64,000 nt of DNA from Schmidtea polychroa (lineage: Eukaryota), in the NCBI GenBank assembly GCA_044892525.1, contig CM097886.1, positions 134,664,001 to 134,728,000 of the forward strand, written 5' to 3'. Each line of letters begins with the position of its first letter. Position 1 is the first letter of the stretch. This document shows positions 7,498 to 63,100 of the stretch, piece after piece. The position numbers and the translations under genes were made by a program. Below the pieces are notes generated by a model. That model was not told the origin of the DNA. It searched no databases and worked only from the letters and a program-made list of their open reading frames with translations.

Positions 7498-7849
7498 GGT
7501 GACCCGATAAAACCGCGCCGACAAAATCGCGAAGTATGTTTTCCGACAAAATCGCGTTGACAAAATGGCGCCGACAAAATCGCGCTGCGATTTACATTTA
7601 CAATTAGAAATTAATCAATTAATCTGTTCTGCGTGCTATCTCACATAATATTGAGCTCTAAATAAATGTTAGTCCTATAATTAAATTTGTTATCTATATA
7701 AAAAACACATATATAAAAAACACAACACAAGATTTTAATTAATTGATATTGTATTTTTTATCGCGATTTTGTCGGCGCCATTTTGTCAACGCGATTTTGT
7801 CGGAAAACATACTTCGCGATTTTGTCGGCGCGGTTTTGTCGGTGAACCC
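7498..7849. mobile_element. Mutator/foldback-like MITE
   Basis: About 95-bp TIRs built from tandem GACAAAATCGCG subrepeats, perfect 9-bp TSD ATATTATAT, inserted beside a (TA)n run. Confidence 0.88.
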
Positions 7850-8451
7850 ATATTATATATATACATATATAAAAAAATATTTCAGAATATAAAAAAATAT
7901 TTTTTTCATTATTTTATTGAACCTCCAATTTGAGCTGGAATTCTGAGATTTGATCGACATTAACAATTTCTTTCAATTCCAAATCAAATATACAATAAAG
8001 ATAGTATATGCAATTTTGTATTTGTGTGAATGTTATGTATGCGTTTTGTGTTGCGTGCAGGTTTTTAGACGGTTCTGTAGTGTCAGTCTTATTTTATAAC
8101 CTAATAAGATTTACCTTTTTAGATTTTTAAGAAAAACGGTTTAAGTTTTGGGCGACTAAGACTAATTTTTTGTCGCTATTTATATTATTTTTTGTGCTTG
8201 CTCTTAACATTAAATTTAAATTAATATATTTCTTAGTCGTGTTCGAGTACTGTTAATTATTAAAAAAATACGTTAATTACTGTTAAACATGTCTTTTGAA
8301 ATTATTTAGAAAAATGTGTTTTAAAGAAAAATTTCTTATTATTTTTTACACGTGTTTTTATCATTACTTTTTAAGTATTGAAAGATTTACATATTATTTT
8401 TCAAGTACTTTTGAAAAAATTTGTTCTGTCGTTTTACAATATTGCAAAGCT

Positions 8452-8955
8452 GGCAACGCTCTAGTATAGGGGGGCAATATAAATATAAATAAAAATTAAT
8501 TAATTGATTATAAAATATAAAATAATATATGTAATTTAATAAAATATAATACATTCTAACATATTATATTATACTTATATTAACATATTATATTATATTT
8601 TCAAAGGAAGTTTGCTCTTTGAAAAAAAACTACCTTCACGTATCGACTTTCTGGAACATCGCATAGGACATCGCCAAATAAAATTGTCGGAAATTTCACT
8701 CTTTTTATTTAATTTCATTATTTTTCCGCAAGCACAAGTATATTGACTCGCAAGCACATTGTTCGTTTGCAAATAGGAAATAATACTCACTGGGTCATGG
8801 ATCATGTCAAATAAGTCGAATATATTAGTTATCTTCATGGGCGTTTTAAAATTAGTTGTTACTTGTCTAAATTTATCCTAATCAATTATTTTATAATCAA
8901 TTAATTAATTTTTATTTATATTTATATTGCCCCCCCCCTATACTAGAGCTTCGCC
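8452..8955 (-). mobile_element. internally deleted Merlin (IS1595/ISXO2-like) DNA transposon
   Basis: About 65-bp TIRs beginning GGCAACGCTCTAGTATAGGGGGG, 8-bp TSD GCAAAGCT / GCAAAGTT; ORF 8593-8838 is a Merlin N-terminal Zn-ribbon (CACGKIM...WRC..C..KSIREGSFFSKSKL). Confidence 0.88.
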
Positions 8956-9604
8956 GCAAAGTTTTTAATTATTGTTTCTCAAGCACTATAATTATTGTTA
9001 TTTTGCTCAACTCGTTATTACTGTATTTCTTGATTTTTACTCAAACACATGCTAATTGATTAATAACTCTATAATAATTAATAAATTCCCACATATTTTT
9101 TACTTTACATTGTATATACATAAAATAAAGATGTACATATAAAATAAATAAGCCACAAGAATTAAATGATCAAAATTTTTAACGATAATCCCATCAATAG
9201 TCAAATTTAATACACATAAAATAAAATAAATACGCTATAAGAATTAAAATAGTCAAATCAAAATGTGAACATCAATAATTAAATTAAATCACAACGATTC
9301 GACAATTAGATATAGTTCATGCAACGACGATTTATTGACACTGCTCTCCGGGCTGGATTGGGTTGGCTTGTTCTGAGGGCTCTATATAAACATTTACCCT
9401 GTATTTATTTGGACCCACTCTATAATATTTAGTGAGCTCGAATTCCTTTATTGCTCGGCCCCTGTCATCCAATATTCCTCACTGGACCGTCAAGGTAATG
9501 TCCTCATTACCTTTATCACTGAGGACTAACTCTATTTCACATTCGTTTATGTACATTTTGTCCTCTGGAATCCATTCCTCAATGCTAGATTCATAATATC
9601 CCCA

Positions 9605-10054
9605 TTATTGACGCGTCTCCCAAAATGTCTGCATATTTCTTTCTCTGTGATAATTGATTTTCCTTTGTCGATGATGAAGTTCGGCTCTTCTAATGCAAAA
9701 TTTGGTTCTGGTCCAAGTCCAATTATATCTACACATTTCTGATCCTTCCTCGTTTTCTGGTTTCTCGATATCTTGCATTTCTTCATCTATTGAAAAATAT
9801 TCTTCATCTGAATCCAAATCGCATTGTGGTTCTTCTCCGTTGTTGCTGCTGCATGCTCTGTGCTCTTTCTTGATTGATGTTATTTGTGGTTTGTCTTCTT
9901 TTATAAAGATGAGATCATCGTCGCTGTCGCTTCCCATTAATTCATCCTCGAAAGTTCGTCTACTTCCGTCTTTATTGAATTTCAATTCTCTTTGTGAGGG
10001 TTCGATATATATATCTTCCTCAATTTCTCCTGGCTCATCACTGTTTTCTTCCAT
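9605..10054 (-). CDS. acidic low-complexity accessory ORF, unknown function
   Basis: 149-aa D/E/S-rich ORF with ATG start overlapping the stop of the exonuclease-like ORF; more frameshifted coding-like sequence continues to about 9300. Confidence 0.4.
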   Translation of the reverse strand: MEENSDEPGEIEEDIYIEPSQRELKFNKDGSRRTFEDELMGSDSDDDLIFIKEDKPQITSIKKEHRACSSNNGEEPQCDLDSDEEYFSIDEEMQDIEKPENEEGSEMCRYNWTWTRTKFCIRRAELHHRQRKINYHRERNMQTFWETRQ

Positions 10055-11366
10055 TGACTGAGTTGATGGCCGATCACACTGTTACCTTTCTGAAATGCTG
10101 TCATATCCCATCTTATATCTTCCTCCCACTGTTTTTCTACAATATTGTATATTACTTTAGTAATCAATGTTGTGTCTTCAGACGAAAATGGCTCGGATTT
10201 TTTGAGGATGTTGTTGACTGCTCTATCTTTTTTCCATTTAGGGTGTGCTGCAATTACTTTATACGCAAGATTTGAGAGCTTGATTTTATGTGGTGCTACA
10301 TTTTTTACAAATGAGCACATAAATATATCCTCTGTCAGTTCCCTGGCTCCCATAACATTGTATAGATCCAACGTCAATGTTTTGAGTTTTTTTATTATTT
10401 TGTATCCTACAATTATCTTTCCCACTAATAAGTTCTGCACATCCACCAATGCCTGATATTCGTCCTCGTTTCCTCTAATTCAGGGGTTCTTAACCTTTTC
10501 AAACTTATGGACCCCATAAATATATAATTGGTACTGACGGACCCCTGAAATGTTAAAAAATTAATAAATTGATAGTAAAACACATACATTTTTTAATAAT
10601 TATTTATAAATTTGTTTATTCAGCTTCAAACAAAAATAGTAGTTTTTTGTAAATAGTGCCGCGGACCACTTGGAACCCGTTCGCGGAACCCCTGGGGGTC
10701 CATGGACCCCAGGTTAAGAACCACTGATCTAATTGAATCTCTGTCTGCCTTCGTCCTTTCTGAGTAAAAGTGTTGAATTTTCGTACGTGGGGTCACTTTT
10801 TTATTATATACAATTTCTCCCCTGAAGTTCCTGATACAAATCTCCACGGGTCTGAGATTGTTATTGATGTCTCCTACTTCTTTGACATCCACAAACCTGA
10901 TTGCTCGTTGTCTTTCCGGAATGGGTAGTTGTTGGTGTGTAAATGACATTTTCTTAGATATGAAATCCTGGTGCATTGTGATTTTTGATGGAATGATTTC
11001 AAGCTCTTTGAAAGGGTTTGGTATAGTTGGGACGTACAGGATTTCAATTGCTATTATGCAAGGTAAATTATTCATTTGTATTAGGAGATTATTAAACTCG
11101 TTTGACATGCTTCTGTTGTTTTTGAGGGTTTTGATCACCACTATACAATTGCTTGTTGTAATTATGGGGATTCTTTGCTGACATATTGAAACTTCCGTTT
11201 TTGTAATATGAAACAATATTCTGTGCGGAACTTTTCTCCCTTCGCTTGCTGCTATGTCCGCATTTTCGAGCGTTTCATAGGCACCAATTAGATATCGTAA
11301 TTTTATTCTCCGAGCCTCATTGAGTTTTATTTTGTGCATTTCTCTTTCTTCGTTCTCGCACTTCAT
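9982..11366 (-). pseudogene. REX4/ISG20-like DEDDh 3'-5' exonuclease-fold ORF interrupted by a hAT MITE
   Basis: Removing 10481-10726 plus one TSD joins ORFs 10626-11366 and 9982-10449 in frame (...RDSIR|GNEDEYQALVDVQNLLVGKIIVGY...), giving 376 aa. Pattern FVDVKEVG..VEICIRNFRGEIVYNKKVTP..LLVGKIIVGY..FSSEDT..IYNIVEKQWE parallels REX4 as recalled (VAMDCEMVG..RVSIVNQYGKCVYDKYVKP..MLKGRILVGH..HCSIQDA..LYVMVKKEWE). Confidence 0.78.
10481..10726. mobile_element. hAT (Charlie/Buster-like) MITE
   Basis: TIRs CAGGGGTTCTTAACCT / AGGTTAAGAACCACTG (15/16), 8-bp TSD CTCTAATT / ATCTAATT. Confidence 0.92.
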
Positions 11367-11473
11367 TTCGTTGGGGATACATACTTGATTGGGGAAGCTT
11401 CTGATGGTAATTGGTGTTCCATCTGAGGTGATCTTGTTTTGAAGATTTTTATAGAAGCTATGATATAGTGGAC

Positions 11474-12010
11474 TTAGTTTTGTTTGGGATTGAGTTGAAT
11501 TGGTTGTTGTTTGGGATTGGATCTGGATTGTACGGTATTTCTTGATTGCATTGTATTGTTTTCTCTAAAGAAATAAAATAAATATACATATTGATAGCGC
11601 ATTTGAGGTTTTACATTATGCGCTTTGATATAAATAATATTGATATATGTGAGTTTAAATAATATTATTGACCAATTAAAATCTTTTGAATTATTAATAG
11701 ACCAATGAGGACATTGTGTATTGTCCTGGTATATATTTATCCAAATGAAAATACCCTGGTACATTTCTGACCAGTCGGTGCCGATGCCGCTGCCTTTTCC
11801 ATTTGTATTTTTGTAAACTTGAACGCTAGTAACTATTGCTAAAATTGCAAATGATAACACACTCGTAGCTATTACGTAAAAAGGCCATTGTGGCTTACTT
11901 GCTTTATTTTGAAAAGCTTGTAATTCATTCCAGTTATTTATAATTATTGGTTTCCCTGTAGGTAATTTTATCAGATTTCGCTCGAATTTATTGTTTAGGT
12001 TTGTGTGTAT
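11474..12010 (-). CDS. ORF with one hydrophobic (TM-like) segment, continuing from the protease C-terminus
   Basis: The frame of ORF 11474-11860 is open upstream to about 12010 (..LNNKFERNLIKLPTGKPIIINNW..PFYVIATSVLSFAILAIVTSVQVY..); it is one frameshift away from the protease frame. Confidence 0.4.
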   Translation of the reverse strand: MHTNLNNKFERNLIKLPTGKPIIINNWNELQAFQNKASKPQWPFYVIATSVLSFAILAIVTSVQVYKNTNGKGSGIGTDWSEMYQGIFIWINIYQDNTQCPHWSINNSKDFNWSIILFKLTYINIIYIKAHNVKPQMRYQYVYLFYFFRENNTMQSRNTVQSRSNPKQQPIQLNPKQN

Positions 12011-12420
12011 TGGCTAAATGTTTTTATGCTGGAGCCGTTTGTGGCTGTTAGTGGTTTTTTTTTGTTTTTTGGATTTTTGTACATGTATTGTGGCAGTAGT
12101 GATATTAAAGATCCTGTGTCCATTAGAAAGTCAGTGCTATTTGTGTGCACCAAAAATGTATTGTTTTTTTCACTGAATATGGGTGCTATCAACAGTGACG
12201 GTTTTTGTTTTCCTGCTATATCTTGTAATATTCACAGGGTTTTGTGCATTTCTATGCTTTGTCACCGAATTTGTTGTGGAAATAGCAATAGTTTTTGTTT
12301 ACAAAATCATTTCTTAATTCTTTTTCTGGGCTATTGTTTTGGTAGTTGTTGTATCGTTTTGGGGAGTTTGACCGGTTCCACATTTTGCTTTCAACTTGCT
12401 TTAAATTCTAATTAATCCGT
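11995..12420 (-). mobile_element. Gypsy (Mag-like) gag C-terminus and aspartic protease fragment
   Basis: CYFHNKFGDKA*KCTKPC gag Zn motif at about 12235-12290, then FLMDTGSLISLLP...LTATNGSSIKTF protease (ORF 11995-12192). Confidence 0.82.
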
Positions 12421-12719
12421 TAACCGGGCGCTCTCGACTTCGATTGCGCAACACACAACGGACCCGAGTATTTACTTAAAGATGTGTATACACGTCCCTC
12501 CCGATACAATATATTTGTAATATCTTTTTGTTTGATTTCAGGTAAATAATATATATTGAAATGTGTATATATAAATAATCACTCATGCTCGAATGTAGCA
12601 ATTTAGAACAATTTTTAATAAAATAATTAAGACTACCAATACTAGAATATAAATATTTTTAAAGTAAATAGAAATAAGGGGAAAATATTTTATTAAAATG
12701 AAAAAATATGGAATATTAA

Positions 12720-13900
12720 AAAAATGCTTTAAAAATCAACTTCAGTGTGGTATATTTTAAAGCAATTGTTTACGTATAATACCACTTTAGAATCTGGACA
12801 CCAATACGCAGATTCTTTTCGAACTCCTTTCTTTCACAATTTTATCTACGCATTCCATCAGGAAATGCAATCTGTCCAAGTTACCATTATCGTTTTTATA
12901 AATTATAAATGCATTTAGACAGCACATCGATTAATCGAAGAAAAATCATTTTATAAAATTTTTTCAATCTATTGCGTGCTAGTGTATATGACGTCATTAA
13001 TCCATCTCTTAAATCAACATCGCCCATATTTTTATTATAATCATCGACAACTTTTGGCTTTTCTACAGAACTCCCTCTTTTTATAGTCATAATTTTTTCA
13101 TCGTTATGAATGGAACTAAGAAACAATACGTCTTTTCGATCCTTCCATTTCACGAGCATTATTTTACCTTTATATCTAACTATATGCTCGTTTTTTTAAT
13201 TCATTGGATTTCCAATTCTATTTTTTCTCATCGTTCCAACAATATCTGTTTTATTATCACATAACATTTCAACTAACTTGATTGACGTGTACCAATTATT
13301 TAAATAAATTTTGTAACTTATTTAGGATATGATGGGTTAATTCTATAACAATTCGTTTTGATTTTTTTTCTCATGATAATTTAAATCTTAATTTGTATCT
13401 TTTCCTGTGTGTAAAATAATATTTTGAATATATCCAGATTTACTTTCACTCAAAACATAATTTTATTCCAAATCGAGCCCTATTTTTGAAATATATTGCT
13501 CCCATGATAAATTGCATTTCCATAATAGAAGTGACTCGCACATGCTTATATTTCGCTCACTAAAATATAAAGTTTTAAATTTTTCTTTAAAATTATTGAT
13601 AATTGGGTCTATTTTATAGGTGTTTATTAGAATTATTGGAATTGAAAGTTGTATTATCTACAAAATGTAAAAATTTTACGATAATCCCTTGTAAAATAAA
13701 CAGGCCTAAAAATTTTCATTTCAGCTTCATTAGTGTCATACCATTTTCGTATTCTTGAACGTGGTTTCAGTTCAGGATTGCTATCAAAAAATTGTTTTGC
13801 ATACAAATTTGTTTGTTCCTTGATTAGTTGAATTAATTTTTCATTTAAAAATTTTTCAAGATATATAGCAGTGGAACTTTTCTAGGAAATGAACGAAATG
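12720..13900 (-). mobile_element. piggyBac (PGBD4-like) transposase relic
   Basis: KWKDRKDVLFLSSIH..KPKVVDDYNKNMGDVDLRD motif; Cys-rich tail remnants (YWCPDSK) near 12790; boundaries approximate, no TIR found. Confidence 0.8.
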
Positions 13901-14715
13901 TTTTTCCAGGCTGTGGTTATCGCGTACTGCGTAAAAGATGAAAATTTAAAAAAAAATTATAGCGATAATTTACTATAGTAACCCATCCGAAGATCATATA
14001 ATTGGAAATCAAAATAAATATAAAGAAGAAAGATTATAATTAAGTGTGAGTCAAAACAAATCCATCCGAAGGTTAATTAATTGAAATCTCAAACACAAAA
14101 TCCTCCATTTCTACTAGTAAAGCAAAACGCTATAAGTAATTCTAAAATCCTTTCAATAATAAACAAACCCACTGTTTGTGTCGATTATTCTATGTAAATT
14201 GTTCTCCAAAATATCATTATTCTTCTATTACAAATAATGGTCCAAATCTCCATCTCCTGACAATTTTACAAAGTATTAATTTTTCCGTGTTAATAAAATT
14301 TGTAATTTTGTTTTATAGTTATTTCTATCATTTTTATTATTTTACAAACAAGCACCTCCAACTGTCCCGAGACAGTATTTTTTTACAGGTGAATCGGTTG
14401 GGTTCAAAAATTTTCTAAACCTATAAGCATAATCACAATTTACAATAAATAAGATAATATATAACAGGTATGTTGCTAAATATTAAAATAATAAAAATAA
14501 CAAATTATAATCATTTAAAAATACGCCAATTTTGACTCGTGGAAGTGTGCTCCATTAGTAATCGTTTAAACTCCCCCCCGACATGCCTCTTCAAGGTCAT
14601 ATGCCTCATCATTTATTTTTTGGACTCATTTATTTTTGAACAAAGAAAATGACTCACCCGATGACTCATAAAAACAGGTCATAATTTTCATAATTTTCTT
14701 CATAAAAACATAGTA

Positions 14716-15091: not shown

Positions 15092-16317
15092 CAGTCATGT
15101 TCAACCTTTTCAACGCCGTGGGCCGCATTAGCAAATTAATAATTGAATGTGGGCGACAGGACAATTACAAAGACTAAAACTCTAGAACCAGTTATTATTA
15201 ACACTACCAGAATGCTTTGATAAATCCAAATTATGTTTATGCATGCTAGATAGTAATGCCTCTAATAAATCCGATCTTTTTGTTTCACCTTTCATTGGAT
15301 AAAGTTCGACAAGCTCTTCAAAAATTTCATGATCTGATGTTATACAACGGGCATATATACATAATTGAGCAACTGAAGTAACATCGGTAGATTCATCAAC
15401 AGCTAACGAAAATTTGATACTAATTTTGAATATTGTTGAAAATTTAGTCACAATATCAGCTGAAATATCAGTAATACGCCGTTGTATTGTCATTCGGTTT
15501 AAACTTAGTGCTTCGAATTTCGAGGTGTATTTTGTACAAGCATTTTTTTACAAAATCACCATCAGTATACGGTCGTGACGATTTAGCTATTAAATGAGCA
15601 ATATCAAAACTTACTTCAACTGCCTGCTCTGCGGACTCATTGCACCTTTTAAAAATATTTTGTTGTGCTTGTAGTGATTGGACCATTGAAGTAATTTGCT
15701 GTTTTCTTAAAATACCAGAATACTTTTCATCAAAATCAAAATGTTTAGTTTGAAAATGTATTTTTAAGTTATAATCTTTCGCCACAGCAATTGTTGCTTT
15801 ACAAATTAAACATATAATGTTACCTTTATACTCGGCAAAACAAAACTTTTCTGTCCATTGCTCTTGGAATACTCGTCTTTCATCTTCTAACTTCCGTTTC
15901 TTAAGTTGTTTTGATACCGACATATTATTTTTTATGACCAAATTAAACAAAAAACTGAATAAAACGATGCAAAGTACAAACTCAAACAGAACAGTAAAAA
16001 TAATTTCTTCCGTTAAGTTAAAATTTTTATCACACCATTTAAAAAATGTTGGGTTTGCATGTCATACTGAGATTCATTTTTTAAGTAATAACATAAAATA
16101 TATCAAGCAATTAGAATTCATTTTTTATATACGCGGTCATAAAAAAATCTCAACGAGTAATTGAGAGTACTTTTTTAGTTTCGTTTCATTTCATATCGGA
16201 TTATTTTCTTATGCATTTCAATGTAATTGCATAATTTCACAATTAGTATACAACAACTTTTTTTTATTTAAATATACAAATTATAAATAAATTAGGGCCG
16301 CGGGTTGTGCATGGCTG
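15092..16317 (-). mobile_element. internally deleted hAT (SPIN/GTF2IRD2-like, Buster group) transposon
   Basis: TIRs CAGTCATGTTCAACC / GGTTGTGCATGGCTG, perfect TSD ATTTAAAA; ORFs contain KRKLEDERRVFQEQW..CLIC..KDYNLKIHF and FSLAVDESTDVTSVAQLCIY. Confidence 0.9.
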
Positions 16318-49785: not shown

Positions 49786-50204
49786 TATTAGCTTTAATAT
49801 AATGTCTACTAATATTTATTTTTCAACTTAAACAAATCCCTCGGAGTATATTGATGATGTTTATTATAGTAATAGTTATACAGGATAGGGCAAAAGGATT
49901 GACACGTTTGAAATTTAAATAAAATCCAATTTAAATAAATAAAAAAGTTTTTATTTATTAAATGTACTTATGATGCCATTTTATTTTATATTGTTTGAAT
50001 AATAATAAAAAGTGTAAATAAGCAAAAAATTTCCGCTATTATTTCCAAAGGAATCTTCATGAGTTTCACAAATGCCCTTGCACGGCCCATATGTAACTGT
50101 ATGGTGTGCGATAGCAGAATTGATATTTTGGGTCCATACTTTTATGAAGATAATATAATAGTGACCGTAAATTCTGGACGATATTGTGCTGTAGGATTCT
50201 TTTC

Positions 50205-51387
50205 GGTAATACTTAAGTTTTGGGGGGGGCTGAATTCAATTTGCCAATTACAATTAATTGATAAATATATCAAATCAGTAATATTGACAGGAATTGTATT
50301 TTTAATAGTATTAAATAGTACATAAAACATTTAAAAGTACATTTAAACATAAAACACAATCCGGAATAATTTTAACTAAAGTACGACTTTAACACATCAA
50401 CAAATAAGGTAAATTGATCAAGCAAATGAACACTTCTAACACTTCGATTGTACATAAACGTACCGAGATATTCAAAAAGATGCTCCCTTTTTACTGGGCT
50501 GGGCAGAAAGGTTTTCAGAGACCTCCACGCACGTTCAATTGTTTGAGTATGAATAGACCGATCAACTGGATCAACAAAATAATATTTGTGATTTACTGTG
50601 AAATGGACATATCCAAGTTCGTTCAAATGCCAGTACCCACGCCACATATCCGTTATAATCCGTGTACCCGGGCGAATATTGTTGCGTATTATATCTTCTA
50701 AATTTTCACGGTTTCGACAAACAGTTGATTTCAAGAATACCTCGCCGGTTTCTCTGCAAATACCGCCTACTATCCACACCGACTGCATTGCTAATACCCG
50801 GCCAACATTATATTTCCTTTTTATTAGATGAGTTTCATCAATTTCAACAGTATATCCTTCACCGCCGATCAAATTCAATCTTTTGTCCATAATTTTAAGC
50901 GTTGCCGCTCTTCTGAAAATTTTGAACCATGAAATTGCGGTTGGTTCACTTATACGACACTGAATCGACGCGAATCCAACACGAAAATTATGGGTGAAGA
51001 AATATGATAGTTGAAGCAATTAGGCGATTGAAATGTGAATACCATCAAAAATGGAATTCAGGAAGATGCTTCGTGACTGACGACACGTTCTCCATCGGAA
51101 GCGTCCATCTACTCCGGGGCGAGTTTTCCCCTTTTCAAAATTCATATTTGCGCCACAAATGTAACATGGTCTCTGAGCAATACTCAGCAATCCAAGCTCT
51201 ATGGCTAATCCGAAAGCTTTTTCTGGAGAGGAGGTTTTTTCACCCAATTCGAAGATATTCATGGGTTTTTTTTTCTTTTTTCATGCTTTATTTCTTTTGG
51301 TTGTTAATGATTCTAGTCAATATATTTATCAATTAATTGTAATTGGCAAATTGAATTCAGCCCCCCTCCCAAAACTTAAGTATTACC
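50205..51387 (-). mobile_element. Merlin DNA transposon, full length
   Basis: About 65-bp TIRs beginning GGTAATACTTAAGTTTTGGG, perfect 8-bp TSD TTCTTTTC. Confidence 0.93.
50372..51262 (-). pseudogene. Merlin (ISXO2/IS1595-like DDE) transposase with one in-frame stop
   Basis: ORFs 51020-51262 and 50372-51019 are in the same frame, separated by TAA; VEIDET, IITDMWRGY, VNHKYYFVDP, HTQTIERAW. Confidence 0.92.
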
Positions 51388-52899
51388 TTCTTTTCTGCAG
51401 CCAAAATTGGATGAACTTTACGTCAAAAATAATGTTTGGTTCCAACAACATGGTGCAAAAGCCCACACATCTAGACGTTCAATGGAAATTTTGAGGAAAA
51501 TGTTCTCCGGTCATTTAATTTCATTGCGAGGTGACCTAGGCTGGCTGGCCCGATCATCTGACTTACCTAAAATTAAAGGTATACATTTGTCGCCAGGATA
51601 TAAAGAACAATTGAAAGATGCAAATCCTCGAGTAATTACACATGAAATGATCCTCCGAGTTATGGACAACTTTCACGGATGTCTTCAAATGAGTGTGGAC
51701 AATAACGACGAACATTTGACTTATGTTATTTGTAAGCTTAAATGAAATAAAATGACATCACATGTACATTTTGGAAATAAAAATACTTTTTTTTATTATT
51801 CAAACAACATAAAATAAAATGGCATAGTTGATAAATAAAAATACTATTTTATTTATTTATTTTAATTTAGTTTTATTTAAATTTCAAATGTGTCAGATCT
51901 TTTTACCCCATCCTGTATAATAAAATACTCCATTTGAAGTAATCGTACTATTTTATTTCTTTTCTCAGAACTTTAAAAAAATTATATTAAATGTTAACTC
52001 AAATTCAAAATGGTACAATCTTCTGAAATAATATCAAAACTGCTTCCTTTTACCAAAAAAAATTCGCCTATCAAGTAACCAAACCATAGTTTAGAACTAT
52101 TTCAGTCATATATGAAAAGTCAACATTGAATTTTAAAATGTTTCACTAGTTATTTTGATGTATATATCGTTTTATACTGGGGTTCCGTTCCGAGAGACAC
52201 GAGCGTAAAAAAATCGGCGTTAAATGAACACAAATATAATGGACGATATAAGGTTATGTTCCTTGTCAAAATTCTAAGAACAATCTAACATGTTTATTTA
52301 ATATATATCCTATATATATTCAAAATAAATTATAAATATATTTAATAAATACACTCAATCGAATCCCATGCTTACTTAACCCAGGCAACGATGACCGTTA
52401 TATCAGGGTTCATAACATGTCTTTTTTGTTAGAGAAGCCGATCCTGAACTCATCCATTCAATCCATTTTTTACGTAGGTGGTCCTTGAATGATTTGTTAA
52501 TACAGACGTCGAAAGGCTATAAGACAACAGAAAGACCTGCTGGAATTACTGCTATATCCATACCCAGATCGATATATTTAAATTGAAAATGAAAAAAGAT
52601 TTTTAATGGGTATTAAATAAATGATCTCCTAAATAAATTAAATGATAATTGAAATTACTAAGTAGTACGTTAATTAATTGTAAATGATTACTATTTTGGT
52701 CCCCATAATTAATGAGTTTTTCTCAATAATAAATTAAGTTGTCTCCATAAAATGGTTATTGAAGTAAGTTCAAATAATTAAATTATCAAATTATTTAAGC
52801 TTAAAATAGAATAAAATAAAAAATAAATGCAAGTGCTTAATATGAACAAGTGGCGAATTACCAATCATTCGACGATAACATAGAAACAGTAACCAAAAC

Positions 52900-60179: not shown

Positions 60180-63100
60180 AAAAACTGATAAAATTAAGTA
60201 TATATCTTTCTACCGATATTTTTCCGAATGATGCATATTTTGCAGCCTTTACACTACTCTTTTACGTCTTTTTCTATTGATGGCCAATAATATTTTAATT
60301 ATAATCTAGATAAGGTTTTCCTTGCAGATAAATGTCCTCCCAAGGCTCTGTCATAATATTGCATCAATAGTGCATCTTTATGTTTAGCCGGAATCATAAT
60401 TAATGCTTCATCATTTTTAAAGCATTTTTGTATTCCGCCGTGAGTTATATATTTAGTGTTTTCGTTTACTATTTGTTTCCAATTATTTTCCCTTTTAATC
60501 GTTGCTGCCTGCTCAAAAATTGCATTAATTGACTGTCACTTTTTTCATTCTGTAGTTCAACTATATCATTGGATGCATTAGATGCATTGAATATTGTACC
60601 TTCTAATGTCGCATTATTTTCCTATTTTCTTCAAGGGTATTCTTGTCATTGCATCGACTTTAGCGTTATGTTTTCCCACTCAATATTTTATTGCAAAATC
60701 GTATTCTTGGAGTGCAACTGACCATTGAATGAGTTTACTAGCCGAATCTCTGTGATTTATTAACCATTGAAGAGGATTGTGGTTCGTATACACAATAAAT
60801 TATCTACCCAACAAATATTGTCTAAATGTAATAATTCCATAAAATAGTGCCAAAGTTTCCTTTCATTTATTGAATATTTTTTTTGTGGTTTCAATGATCT
60901 CGCGTCTGATTTTACGTGATCTTTTTCACCTTATACTTTTTGGCTCAATACTGTCTCTAAGGCAACATTACAAGCATCAGTCATTAATATACAAGGTTTT
61001 GTAAAATCTGGACATCGCAATATAGGTGCTATTATTAATTTTTTCTTTAGTTCATCAAAAGAATCTTGCTGATTTTTGTTCAATGTAAACATTGTTTTCA
61101 ATAATGAATTTAACGTCTGAGCAATATGCGAAAAGTCCTTTATGAATTTTCTGTAGTAACTGGTCAAACCAAGAAATTATCTTACTTGGTCAACATTCTT
61201 TGGAATTGAAGATGCTTCAACTTTCTTAATATTTTACGGATTAGTTTGTAGGCCTCTTCGTGATAATATATGATCGACATACAGTAAATCTGATTTTTTC
61301 ATTCACACTTTGATCGCTTTATTTTTAATTTTGCACTCTTCAATCGCTTGAACACTTGTTGGGTTTTCAGTTAATTTAAGTCGGTAATTTCTGACTCCTC
61401 GTGTCCTTTAAATCAAAACAATAACTACCCAACGTATATTGGAATAACAAAATTTACAATCTTTTCTCAACACTTTACAATCAATAATCAAAGTTACGTT
61501 TGACCGATTCTCAGCACGGCGTTGATGCTTTGATAAAGATAATATTCACCTTTTATTTCTTTAGATTCTCTTGACCCACGTTTTCCTCTTTTTCTGTTTG
61601 ATTTGATTCTTTATCACCTTTCCGTATTCCTATTCTATATCTTCTTTTCCCTAATCTCCTTAATTCGTTTTTACCTCTCGACTATTCTCGATTCTTCTTA
61701 CCCTACCTGAGGCAAAATGCCGATTTGCTTTGATTTTCCCCTTCCTTATATACTCTTCGAAATCGGGATGACAAATGGTTATTGCCGAGCCATTCTTTCA
61801 CTTGACATTTGCTTCCACGTATCTGCTTCGGCTGTCACTCATAATGGTCCAACGAACAAAGATAGTTAATGGCCCGTCCGGCCTTTCTGCATGCACTATC
61901 TTCTCCTTGCTCTTTTCCAATTAATCATTGTGTCACGCTAATGGGCCAAAATCTTCCTTCTATTTACTTTTCTCTTTGTTTACCCAGTTCGGGTTTCCTT
62001 CATCTCTCGGGTTCTCCATTGGCTCGGGTTTCCCATTAGCTCGGGTTTTCTATTAGCCAATTAATTTATTAATTAACCTTTTCTTTTTTAACACATTTGA
62101 ATGCTTTTCTACCCTTTCTAACCATTTTCTAATAAATCCCTAATCATCACCTTGTTGACCATTAGCTAATCTATACCTGTCCCGTTTTCCCAATTCGATT
62201 TCGATGATTTTACAATTTATTGATTTTTCTCGGATTTCCCGATTCTTGCCTTTCATAACTGCTTTTGCCATTTCCTAATACTGCTTCCAACGTACTTTCC
62301 TTTACTATCGATTCTGTGCATGATCACGCTTTTATTTGTCTTTTTTCTTCACTTACTTTTTATTTAAATTATTAACCTAAATTTCATTTAAATTTATTTT
62401 AATTTACAGACCTCAACACACTGTTTCAACATCTTTAAGATGCTCCATAAAGTCGTTTGAAAATATAATTATGTTGACGATGTATAGTAACCTATGCTGA
62501 ATGTCTCTCAGTACAAAATTCATTTCTCTTTGAAATGTGGCTGGGGCTTCTGTTAAACCAAATGCTAAAATATTAAATACTTATAAATTTTAGCCATCTG
62601 AAAACGCTGTTTTCTTCTGTCTTCCTCTTTTATACCTTATTTAAATCAATAACAGTGAAATATTGAGCCTCCCCATCTGGTCAAACATTTCCTGTGGGTA
62701 TTGGGTACTTTCTATAATCAATTCAGAATCGTAATTCCCCGTCATTTTTCTTAACAATTACAATTAATGACGAAAATGATGATGAGCTATTTCGGATTAT
62801 CCCAAATTCTTTCATTGCATTCATTTGATCAATATCTGCTTAATCATTAAGCCTTAATGAATATGTATTATTCATTTTAATTGGAGTTTCATCCAACGTG
62901 ATTTCGTGCTTTAGAATGTTTAAATTATATTCATATTTCGCGAAAATATCTTGATATCTTCTCAATAGTTTGGTGAATTCATTTCGTTATATTTCTGTTA
63001 AAACTGTACTCACCACATTCGGTTCTTTGTAAATTTTAATATTTCTGGAAATTTTCTGGAAATTTTCTTTTCGGCTTCTACTGTCATTTGAGATAATTCT

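Follow-up and report, generated by a model that had tools for sequence, protein, structure and literature searches.

The stretch of DNA analysed here (the window) comprises 64,000 nucleotides of Schmidtea polychroa (GenBank assembly GCA_044892525.1, contig CM097886.1, positions 134,664,001 to 134,728,000 of the forward strand), and the locus in question lies between its positions 8006 and 12420. An earlier note, made from the letters alone, had read the region 9300-12420 as one gypsy element in which gag and protease were followed by accessory open reading frames (ORFs) in place of reverse transcriptase (RT), RNase H (RH) and integrase (IN). Six-frame translation placed all parts on the minus strand, with no RT between the ORFs of 9300-12420, as that note had stated. 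The locus is, however, chimeric debris in which two broken retroelements are joined: the pieces are real, but the reading as a single element is wrong. In the direction of translation, the first piece (11984-12377) is a 394-bp gypsy scrap, in which the gag end with its Cys/His motif and the start of a DTG-type protease (PR) were seen as predicted, broken by stops. It meets the second piece at a junction (11984-11988) where the two elements share about 5 bases of microhomology. The second piece is the 3′ end of a Burro-like element. It retains the C-terminal tail of the polyprotein (11700-11989), with a hydrophobic transmembrane (TM) helix at about 11822-11881, a frameshift after the helix and a basic cytoplasmic tail; the broken remnant of a gene that we call ORF2 (9332-11551), which is one gene in unbroken family copies; a purine-rich polypurine tract (PPT); and a degraded 3′ long terminal repeat (LTR, 8006-9476). 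The gypsy scrap has neither an LTR nor a 5′ end, and within 26 bases of it begins a multi-copy piggyBac-like DNA transposon fragment (12403-13915, minus strand; PF13843, E 1e-16; 9 non-self matches), which lies outside both retroelements.

The ORF2 remnant has been damaged by frameshifts, one stop and a high-copy miniature inverted-repeat transposable element (MITE) inserted at 10481-10726. This MITE is bounded by terminal inverted repeats of 15 bp and flanked by an 8-bp target duplication that contains one mismatch; a sister copy has the empty site, and the depth over the MITE in run X1 was about 1000-fold above the flanks. Translation yielded a frame of 312 codons that ends in the MITE, another of 165 codons beyond it, and an acidic frame; Pfam searches with four window ORFs of the 9300-12420 region matched no family. 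The earlier note had described a 376-aa ORF of DEDDh exonuclease fold and an overlapping acidic ORF. Structure models and fold searches support the fold, but a 376-aa ORF is obtained only when the MITE is disregarded; the acidic stretch is likewise real (38 Asp/Glu residues in 120 aa), but is part of ORF2 together with the exonuclease and not a separate gene. The order of domains in the remnant is a predicted double-stranded beta-helix (DSBH) domain of the cupin or 2OG-Fe(II)-dioxygenase type (11030-11474), a predicted ISG20/REX4-like DEDDh exonuclease fold, likely inactive (10116-10904), an acidic linker and a C-terminal domain that runs into the 3′ LTR, which contains the last codons of ORF2. 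The start of the LTR, at about 9476, aligns with that of the TG..CA LTRs in family copies, with matches of 74% over 191 bp and of 72% over 99 bp, and matching sequence extends to about 8006; it is interrupted by a MITE at 8469-8935, and its far end was not found in the comparison with family LTRs. The earlier note was thus right that there is no LTR pair, since the element has lost its 5′ part, but it had overlooked the 3′ LTR.

The source assembly that was searched (781 Mb, AT-rich, four large contigs) contains relatives of both pieces, and each search scored the best 40-150 of hundreds of candidates. With 11900-12700 as the query, 39 non-self matches were obtained (81-88%; 40 scored of 678 candidates), all within 11983-12378. 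With 10740-12450 as the query (41 match rows of 731 candidates), none of the 40 non-self rows continued beyond query base 1247. A 131-bp probe across the junction was spanned by the window alone among 40 scored of 189 candidates; every other match covered one side, either bases 1-69 or bases 65-131, which overlap by 5 bases. Further copies with the protease-to-TM junction, for which the earlier note had proposed to look, were thus not found among the matches scored. Contigs of three of four public runs, from two studies, bridged the junction (the best run may be the source sample), so that it is real DNA and not an assembly artefact. The TM frame, which had been thought to continue the C-terminus of the protease, proved to be the polyprotein tail of the other element, since tblastn matched it to a natural Burro-like copy (73% over 60 aa, and 87%). 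Conversely, the family of the gypsy scrap bears RT: two (L046 and L049) of the six loci with ORFs that were examined continue from the protease into RT. In a midpoint-rooted tree of 19 RT segments of at least 150 aa, built from sequences of this analysis with no reference elements, these RTs formed a branch separate from the Burro-like RTs (support 100/99). These comparisons indicate that the 394-bp scrap comes from an ordinary RT-bearing gypsy family unrelated to the Burro-like element. From its gag motif we presume the scrap at 11984-12377 to be of Mag type; the RT comparison covered the separation of its family from the Burro-like RTs.

The structure of the parent element was established from fuller copies, in which the order is LTR, gag, Bcl-2, class III glycoprotein, PR, RT, RH, IN, a frame with signal, fibronectin type III (FN3)-like and TM segments, ORF2 and LTR, about 13 kb from LTR to LTR. 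When 20 family loci were extended to 20 kb, eight had glycoprotein, PR and RT upstream of the 3′ cassette and the others were truncated or deleted at differing places; the pol-bearing loci include the one most similar to the window copy (92%). The accessory ORFs therefore lie after a complete pol and not in its place. Five of the first ten loci had LTR pairs, spaced at about 12-13 kb except in one deleted copy, where the distance was 9 kb, and four of the pairs were 97-100% identical. The LTRs begin with TG and end with CA, one copy has a 4-bp target site duplication (TSD), and an 18-nt primer binding site (PBS) is the complement of the last bases of tRNA-Phe(GAA) genes in the source genome plus CCA. 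The copies with full pol, LTRs, PBS and TSD that the earlier note had proposed looking for thus exist, in the Burro-like family. Tandem tRNA-Phe(GAA) genes with a 255-bp period were observed at one locus (L128, contig C1:34,234,000-34,257,000), and a 15-base PBS pattern occurs 2,078 times in the source genome.

Pfam searches with one natural copy gave, in order, zf-CCHC, Bcl-2, PF24664, RVP, RVT_1, RT_RNaseH and rve. The Bcl-2 match (PF00452, E 2.4e-5) scored 25.3 bits, below the cut-off of 31.4, and is followed, in the same order in a sister family, by the Monjiviricetes fusion glycoprotein PF24664 (E 9e-54), located between gag and RVP. Beyond IN the frame encodes a type I membrane protein, made up of a signal-like segment, a sandwich resembling FN3, a stalk rich in Thr and the TM helix that survives in the window. 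The sandwich had no Pfam match, and its assignment to FN3 is a lead only (Atlas 0.87, recognition 1875, below the recognition threshold). The order PR-RT-RH-IN, together with paired TG..CA LTRs, PBS, PPT and a short TSD, is that of Ty3/gypsy elements. Four copies (L033, L035, L037 and L040) adjoin, or sit within, Polinton-like clusters of ORFs, in which integrase-, ATPase- and polymerase-like frames were recognized by eye.

The parent of 8000-11988 is a member of an already published kind, with the plan of Burro and the GAG-ENV-POL errantiviruses. In Burro, BCL2 and then an in-frame env lie between gag and pol (Arkhipova and Yushenova 2019, PMC6431247). Burro and GYPSM1 share with our family the polyprotein design, the presence of accessory ORFs and a gag that is separated from the protease by a Bcl-2-like domain and then a mononegavirus-like env, but they exceed 30 kb and have a polyprotein of about 4,900 aa (PMC6431247), as against about 13 kb for the window family and 16-17 kb for its sisters; because of this size, we call the family Burro-like and not Burro-1. 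The MATH, BIR, ankyrin and dUTPase domains of Burro and GYPSM1 had no Pfam match in the window family, although ankyrins occur in a metagenomic relative (L084, below), and the Burro section of PMC6431247 names no exonuclease or membrane tail. Burro is derepressed upon smedwi-2 RNA interference (PMC8532177, PMC11410931). Smed_errantivirus_3 and other flatworm errantiviruses (Chary and Hayashi, eLife 2026, PMC13524379) have the gag-env-pol order in common with the family, including a class III (HSV/gB-type) glycoprotein, which in the family copy lies between gag and pol; by eye, the ectodomain of the Smed_errantivirus_3 ENV differs from that of the family copy at about 41 of 246 positions (about 83% identical). 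In the main text of PMC13524379 the words exonuclease, DEDD, Bcl, fibronectin and Burro do not occur, the tRNA type of Smed_errantivirus_3 is absent from the paper's table, and we met no mention there of the TM tail, of ORF2 or of a tRNA-Phe PBS. The new part is ORF2, a predicted cupin/ISG20-like protein in active and dead forms, which together with the membrane tail makes up the 3′ cassette; the plan of the parent was already known. A targeted literature search found no description of this cassette, nor of an ISG20-type or cupin-fused exonuclease in these elements, with Grohme 2018 and Repbase, which may annotate these ORFs, outside its coverage.

Several histories could account for the window locus. 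The earlier note had offered two, the first being a non-autonomous gypsy lineage, amplified in trans, whose RT-RH-IN had been replaced by a cargo of TM, exonuclease and acidic ORFs. The tight packing of the parts on one strand and a short open frame across the junction are what such a lineage would show; on the other hand, the window was the sole spanner of the junction among the matches scored, and the two families that meet there have different RTs. The Burro-like family does include a genuine pol-deleted copy (L037/L038, contig C1:28.58-28.59 Mb), a 9-kb copy that kept both LTRs and a TSD and lost env-PR-RT-RH by an in-frame deletion, but this form too is single (one of 40 scored, 259 candidates). 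An amplified non-autonomous derivative resembling large retrotransposon derivatives or terminal-repeat retrotransposons in miniature (LARD/TRIM-like) would be expected to have several copies that share one deletion junction inside an LTR pair; among the copies scored, no such sharing was seen for the window or for L037/L038. On these matches a lineage of this kind is hardly credible, and we conclude that the one proposed does not exist. The second proposal, a deletion derivative of an accessory-rich LTR element, holds for the accessory ORFs but not for the gag-protease segment, which belongs to the other family. A further alternative, in which the RT switched templates between co-packaged RNAs and left a one-off recombinant without any deletion of DNA, would agree with the short microhomology and the common orientation of the two pieces; a scrap that lacks an LTR and a 5′ end and abuts a DNA transposon fits deletions within nested repeats better, and we regard template switching as improbable. 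We infer that the junction likely arose by a deletion between nested insertions, which would have used a few bases of microhomology to join the two pieces. A second genomic copy of the junction would count against its uniqueness, and appears unlikely with the best 40 of 189 candidates scored. The explanation of a Burro-like 3′ end and an unrelated gypsy scrap at a single-copy junction is in our view very probable. The window copy itself is inert, and the locus as originally posed is ordinary nested-repeat debris, not to be listed as a new lineage that swaps cargo.

ORF2 is unbroken in many copies, where it encodes about 630 aa within open frames of 720-790 codons, among them frames of 722-731 codons. 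A protein query with the exonuclease region (150 scored of 1,098 candidates) revealed subfamilies of about 98, 77 and 66% identity. Pfam recognized no family in the full ORF2 of a natural copy, and a word-index protein search gave one match, a chimeric metaclust entry; HMMER over 1.84 billion representatives detected 63 relatives, of which 33 matched PF00929 (RNase_T) at E ≤0.05, 25 of them above the curated cut-off. None of ten relatives looked up bore an informative database name, and relatives from ENA/Logan were on contigs of up to 32 kb. An AlphaFold model of a natural copy, based on 53 sequences, reached a pLDDT (predicted local distance difference test) of 87. Its C-terminal part matched human ISG20 (Foldseek E 2.7e-8; VIA Z 18.9, root-mean-square deviation (rmsd) 2.7, 162 residues aligned), and a profile of 29 relatives matched ISG20L2 with E 4.8e-32, so that the region is predicted to have a DnaQ-like fold of the ISG20/REX4-type DEDDh group. 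The N-terminal 150 residues, folded alone from a natural copy, gave a pLDDT of 79.5; all 50 VIA rows were cupin/2OG-dioxygenase folds (best Z 8.8, rmsd 3.8, 140 aligned) and the best Foldseek E was 2.5e-3. With these middling scores the domain is predicted, at the level of fold class only, to be a DSBH of the cupin-barrel type; the alignment contains one near-invariant His, no HxD...H metal triad was identified in it, and the scores do not separate AlkB from small cupins.

With ISG20, ISG20L2 and REX4, ORF2 has the fold in common at an identity of 16-19% only; it differs in its extra N-terminal barrel and, in the window family, in the lack of three catalytic residues. There, the ExoI Asp alone was kept in register, while the ExoI Glu, the ExoII Asp and the ExoIII His were replaced, and the domain is likely inactive. 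In an alignment of 60 sequences (50 database proteins of at least 280 aa and 10 from loci), 36 kept all five catalytic positions and 24 did not, three of these partly through incompleteness. The altered forms, in which catalysis would be lost, were distributed over several branches (FastTree support only). One altered relative (P0022, on a 16-kb contig) has its exonuclease domain fused to a C-terminal RING finger. The arenavirus nucleoprotein exonuclease was a weaker Atlas neighbour (0.88) and is a functional analogue. A comparable published arrangement is that of the bdelloid rotifer LTR elements Juno and Vesta (Rodriguez et al. 2017, PMC5408684), which also carry an exonuclease ORF downstream of pol; that ORF3 is RNase D-like DEDDy with intact residues, in elements without env, whereas ORF2 is DEDDh of ISG20/REX4 type, is fused to a DSBH, belongs to an enveloped element and occurs in intact and dead forms.

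The cassette is present beyond the window family. An intact-type ORF2 query of the source genome gave 116 scored matches of 1,126 candidates, and among 20 that were fetched, 15 had all three Exo motifs, three had two and two were altered. Four of five sister loci extended to 40 kb had gag-env-RT-RH-IN followed by a beta-sandwich/TM tail and ORF2; three sister loci had LTR pairs of 99.4-99.8% identity spanning 16-17 kb, and in these 16-17 kb families the catalytic residues of ORF2 are intact. A further family of the same genome has an altered ORF2 in the same position. Outside this genome, 4 of 272 pattern matches in JGI metagenomes were confirmed as ORF2 relatives, and none of 113 in viral contigs, where one subgroup alignment served as the query. 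The metagenome contig L084 (3-11517; near-duplicate L085) encodes PR-RT-RH-IN, a second aspartic protease, ankyrins, signal, sandwich and TM segments, and then an altered and an intact ORF2 in tandem, followed by a ubiquitin-like ORF. These comparisons lead us to regard ORF2 as an accessory gene that recently active retroelements with an envelope carry as a regular component.

Divergence among copies points to constraint on ORF2. Between subfamilies, the nonsynonymous divergence (dN) was 0.06-0.27 with synonymous sites saturated, which is strong evidence of purifying selection despite the lost catalytic residues; between the window and its closest copy, the ratio of nonsynonymous to synonymous divergence (dN/dS) was 0.42 and 0.33 in two parts. 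In the same pairs of copies, the four-fold sites that differed in RT and in the exonuclease were 8 of 69 and 29 of 39, 7 of 56 and 28 of 37, and 13 of 64 and 10 of 21, respectively. The silent sites of ORF2 thus diverge far faster than those of pol when the same copies are compared, which suggests that subfamilies have exchanged the 3′ module. Of 14 ORF2 starts inspected, 11 had a pyrimidine tract and a YAG no more than about 15 bases from the likely AUG; in the window, the corresponding candidate splice acceptor, a pyrimidine tract and AG just upstream of the AUG at 11551, lies at 11551-11580 on the minus strand. ORF2 would likely be expressed from a spliced subgenomic RNA.

ISG20 is an antiviral RNA-trimming enzyme. 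For ORF2, the most likely job, which we assign tentatively, would be to act on the element's own RNA and shield it from host RNA surveillance. An ORF2 with intact DEDDh residues would trim double-stranded or aberrant 3′ ends, in the manner of the arenavirus nucleoprotein (10.1101/2021.02.01.429129), and one that has lost them, as in the window family, would bind and mask RNA ends or serve as a decoy. A role in replication, in which ORF2 would trim the 3′ ends of RNA, or the ends of primer or cDNA, while the element is reverse-transcribed or packaged, and in which dead forms would act as structural RNA chaperones, is a rival that we think only slightly less likely. It would accord with the nearest folds (ISG20L2, SDN1 and PAN2), which are RNA-processing enzymes, and with the proposal that the rotifer DEDDy ORF3s process the 3′ ends of element RNA (PMC5408684); however, catalytically altered families have near-identical LTR pairs, which implies recent transposition without the activity, and catalysis appears to have been lost in several separate branches (FastTree support only). 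We favour evasion over replication because recently transposed families manage without catalysis, and because the module is swapped, occurs in duplicated pairs of an active and a dead form and is accompanied by Bcl-2 and an envelope; each of these traits is typical of host-interaction genes. That ORF2 is captured REXO4/ISG20-like host debris with no present function is extremely improbable: the window family does lack catalytic residues, and ORF2 diverges faster than pol, but open frames of more than 700 codons persist in many copies under strong purifying selection, and ORF2 keeps its position in sister families and in another host (the metagenome contig).

Several points weigh against the proposed evasion role and the cassette on which it builds. 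The role is drawn by analogy, and what is said of ORF2 expression, splicing and activity is based on sequence and assembled contigs. YAG before AUG is common in AT-rich DNA. In a third part of the comparison between the window and its closest copy, dN/dS was about 1 (46 codons, probably a frameshifted alignment). The retroelement context outside the source genome comes from three informative loci (L084-L086), few of the 63 relatives. With these points in mind, it is possible, if doubtful, that enveloped gag-env-pol metaviruses of flatworms, and probably of other invertebrates, have a conserved 3′ counter-defence cassette of an FN3-type membrane protein and a cupin-barrel/ISG20-like exonuclease. 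The nuclease would erase or mask immunostimulatory RNA, be swapped between subfamilies, be duplicated as active/decoy pairs and repeatedly become a pseudo-enzyme. If so, the cassette would correspond, in retroelements, to the arenavirus exonuclease and would offer a way to study how such elements survive under PIWI and double-stranded RNA surveillance in adult stem cells. ORF2 is also relevant to a wider question, namely why virus-like accessory genes (for anti-apoptosis, RNA evasion and surface proteins) are retained by giant invertebrate retroelements, and since active and dead forms occur naturally in one genome, its role is directly testable.

Other repeats were observed elsewhere in the window. 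At 7504-7842, 8469-8935 and 49892-51903 there are MITE-like elements whose terminal inverted repeats are long; one pair of them is nested. A further gypsy pol remnant with RT, RH and IN (60206-62827, minus strand) is 44-57% identical to the Burro-like domains. The segment 18534-19995 matches DNA beside family copy L038 at 76-83% and is probably a Polinton-like fragment. Two overlapping minus-strand frames at 15182-16061 are presumably a remnant of a hAT/GTF2IRD2-type transposase, judging from their resemblance to such enzymes.

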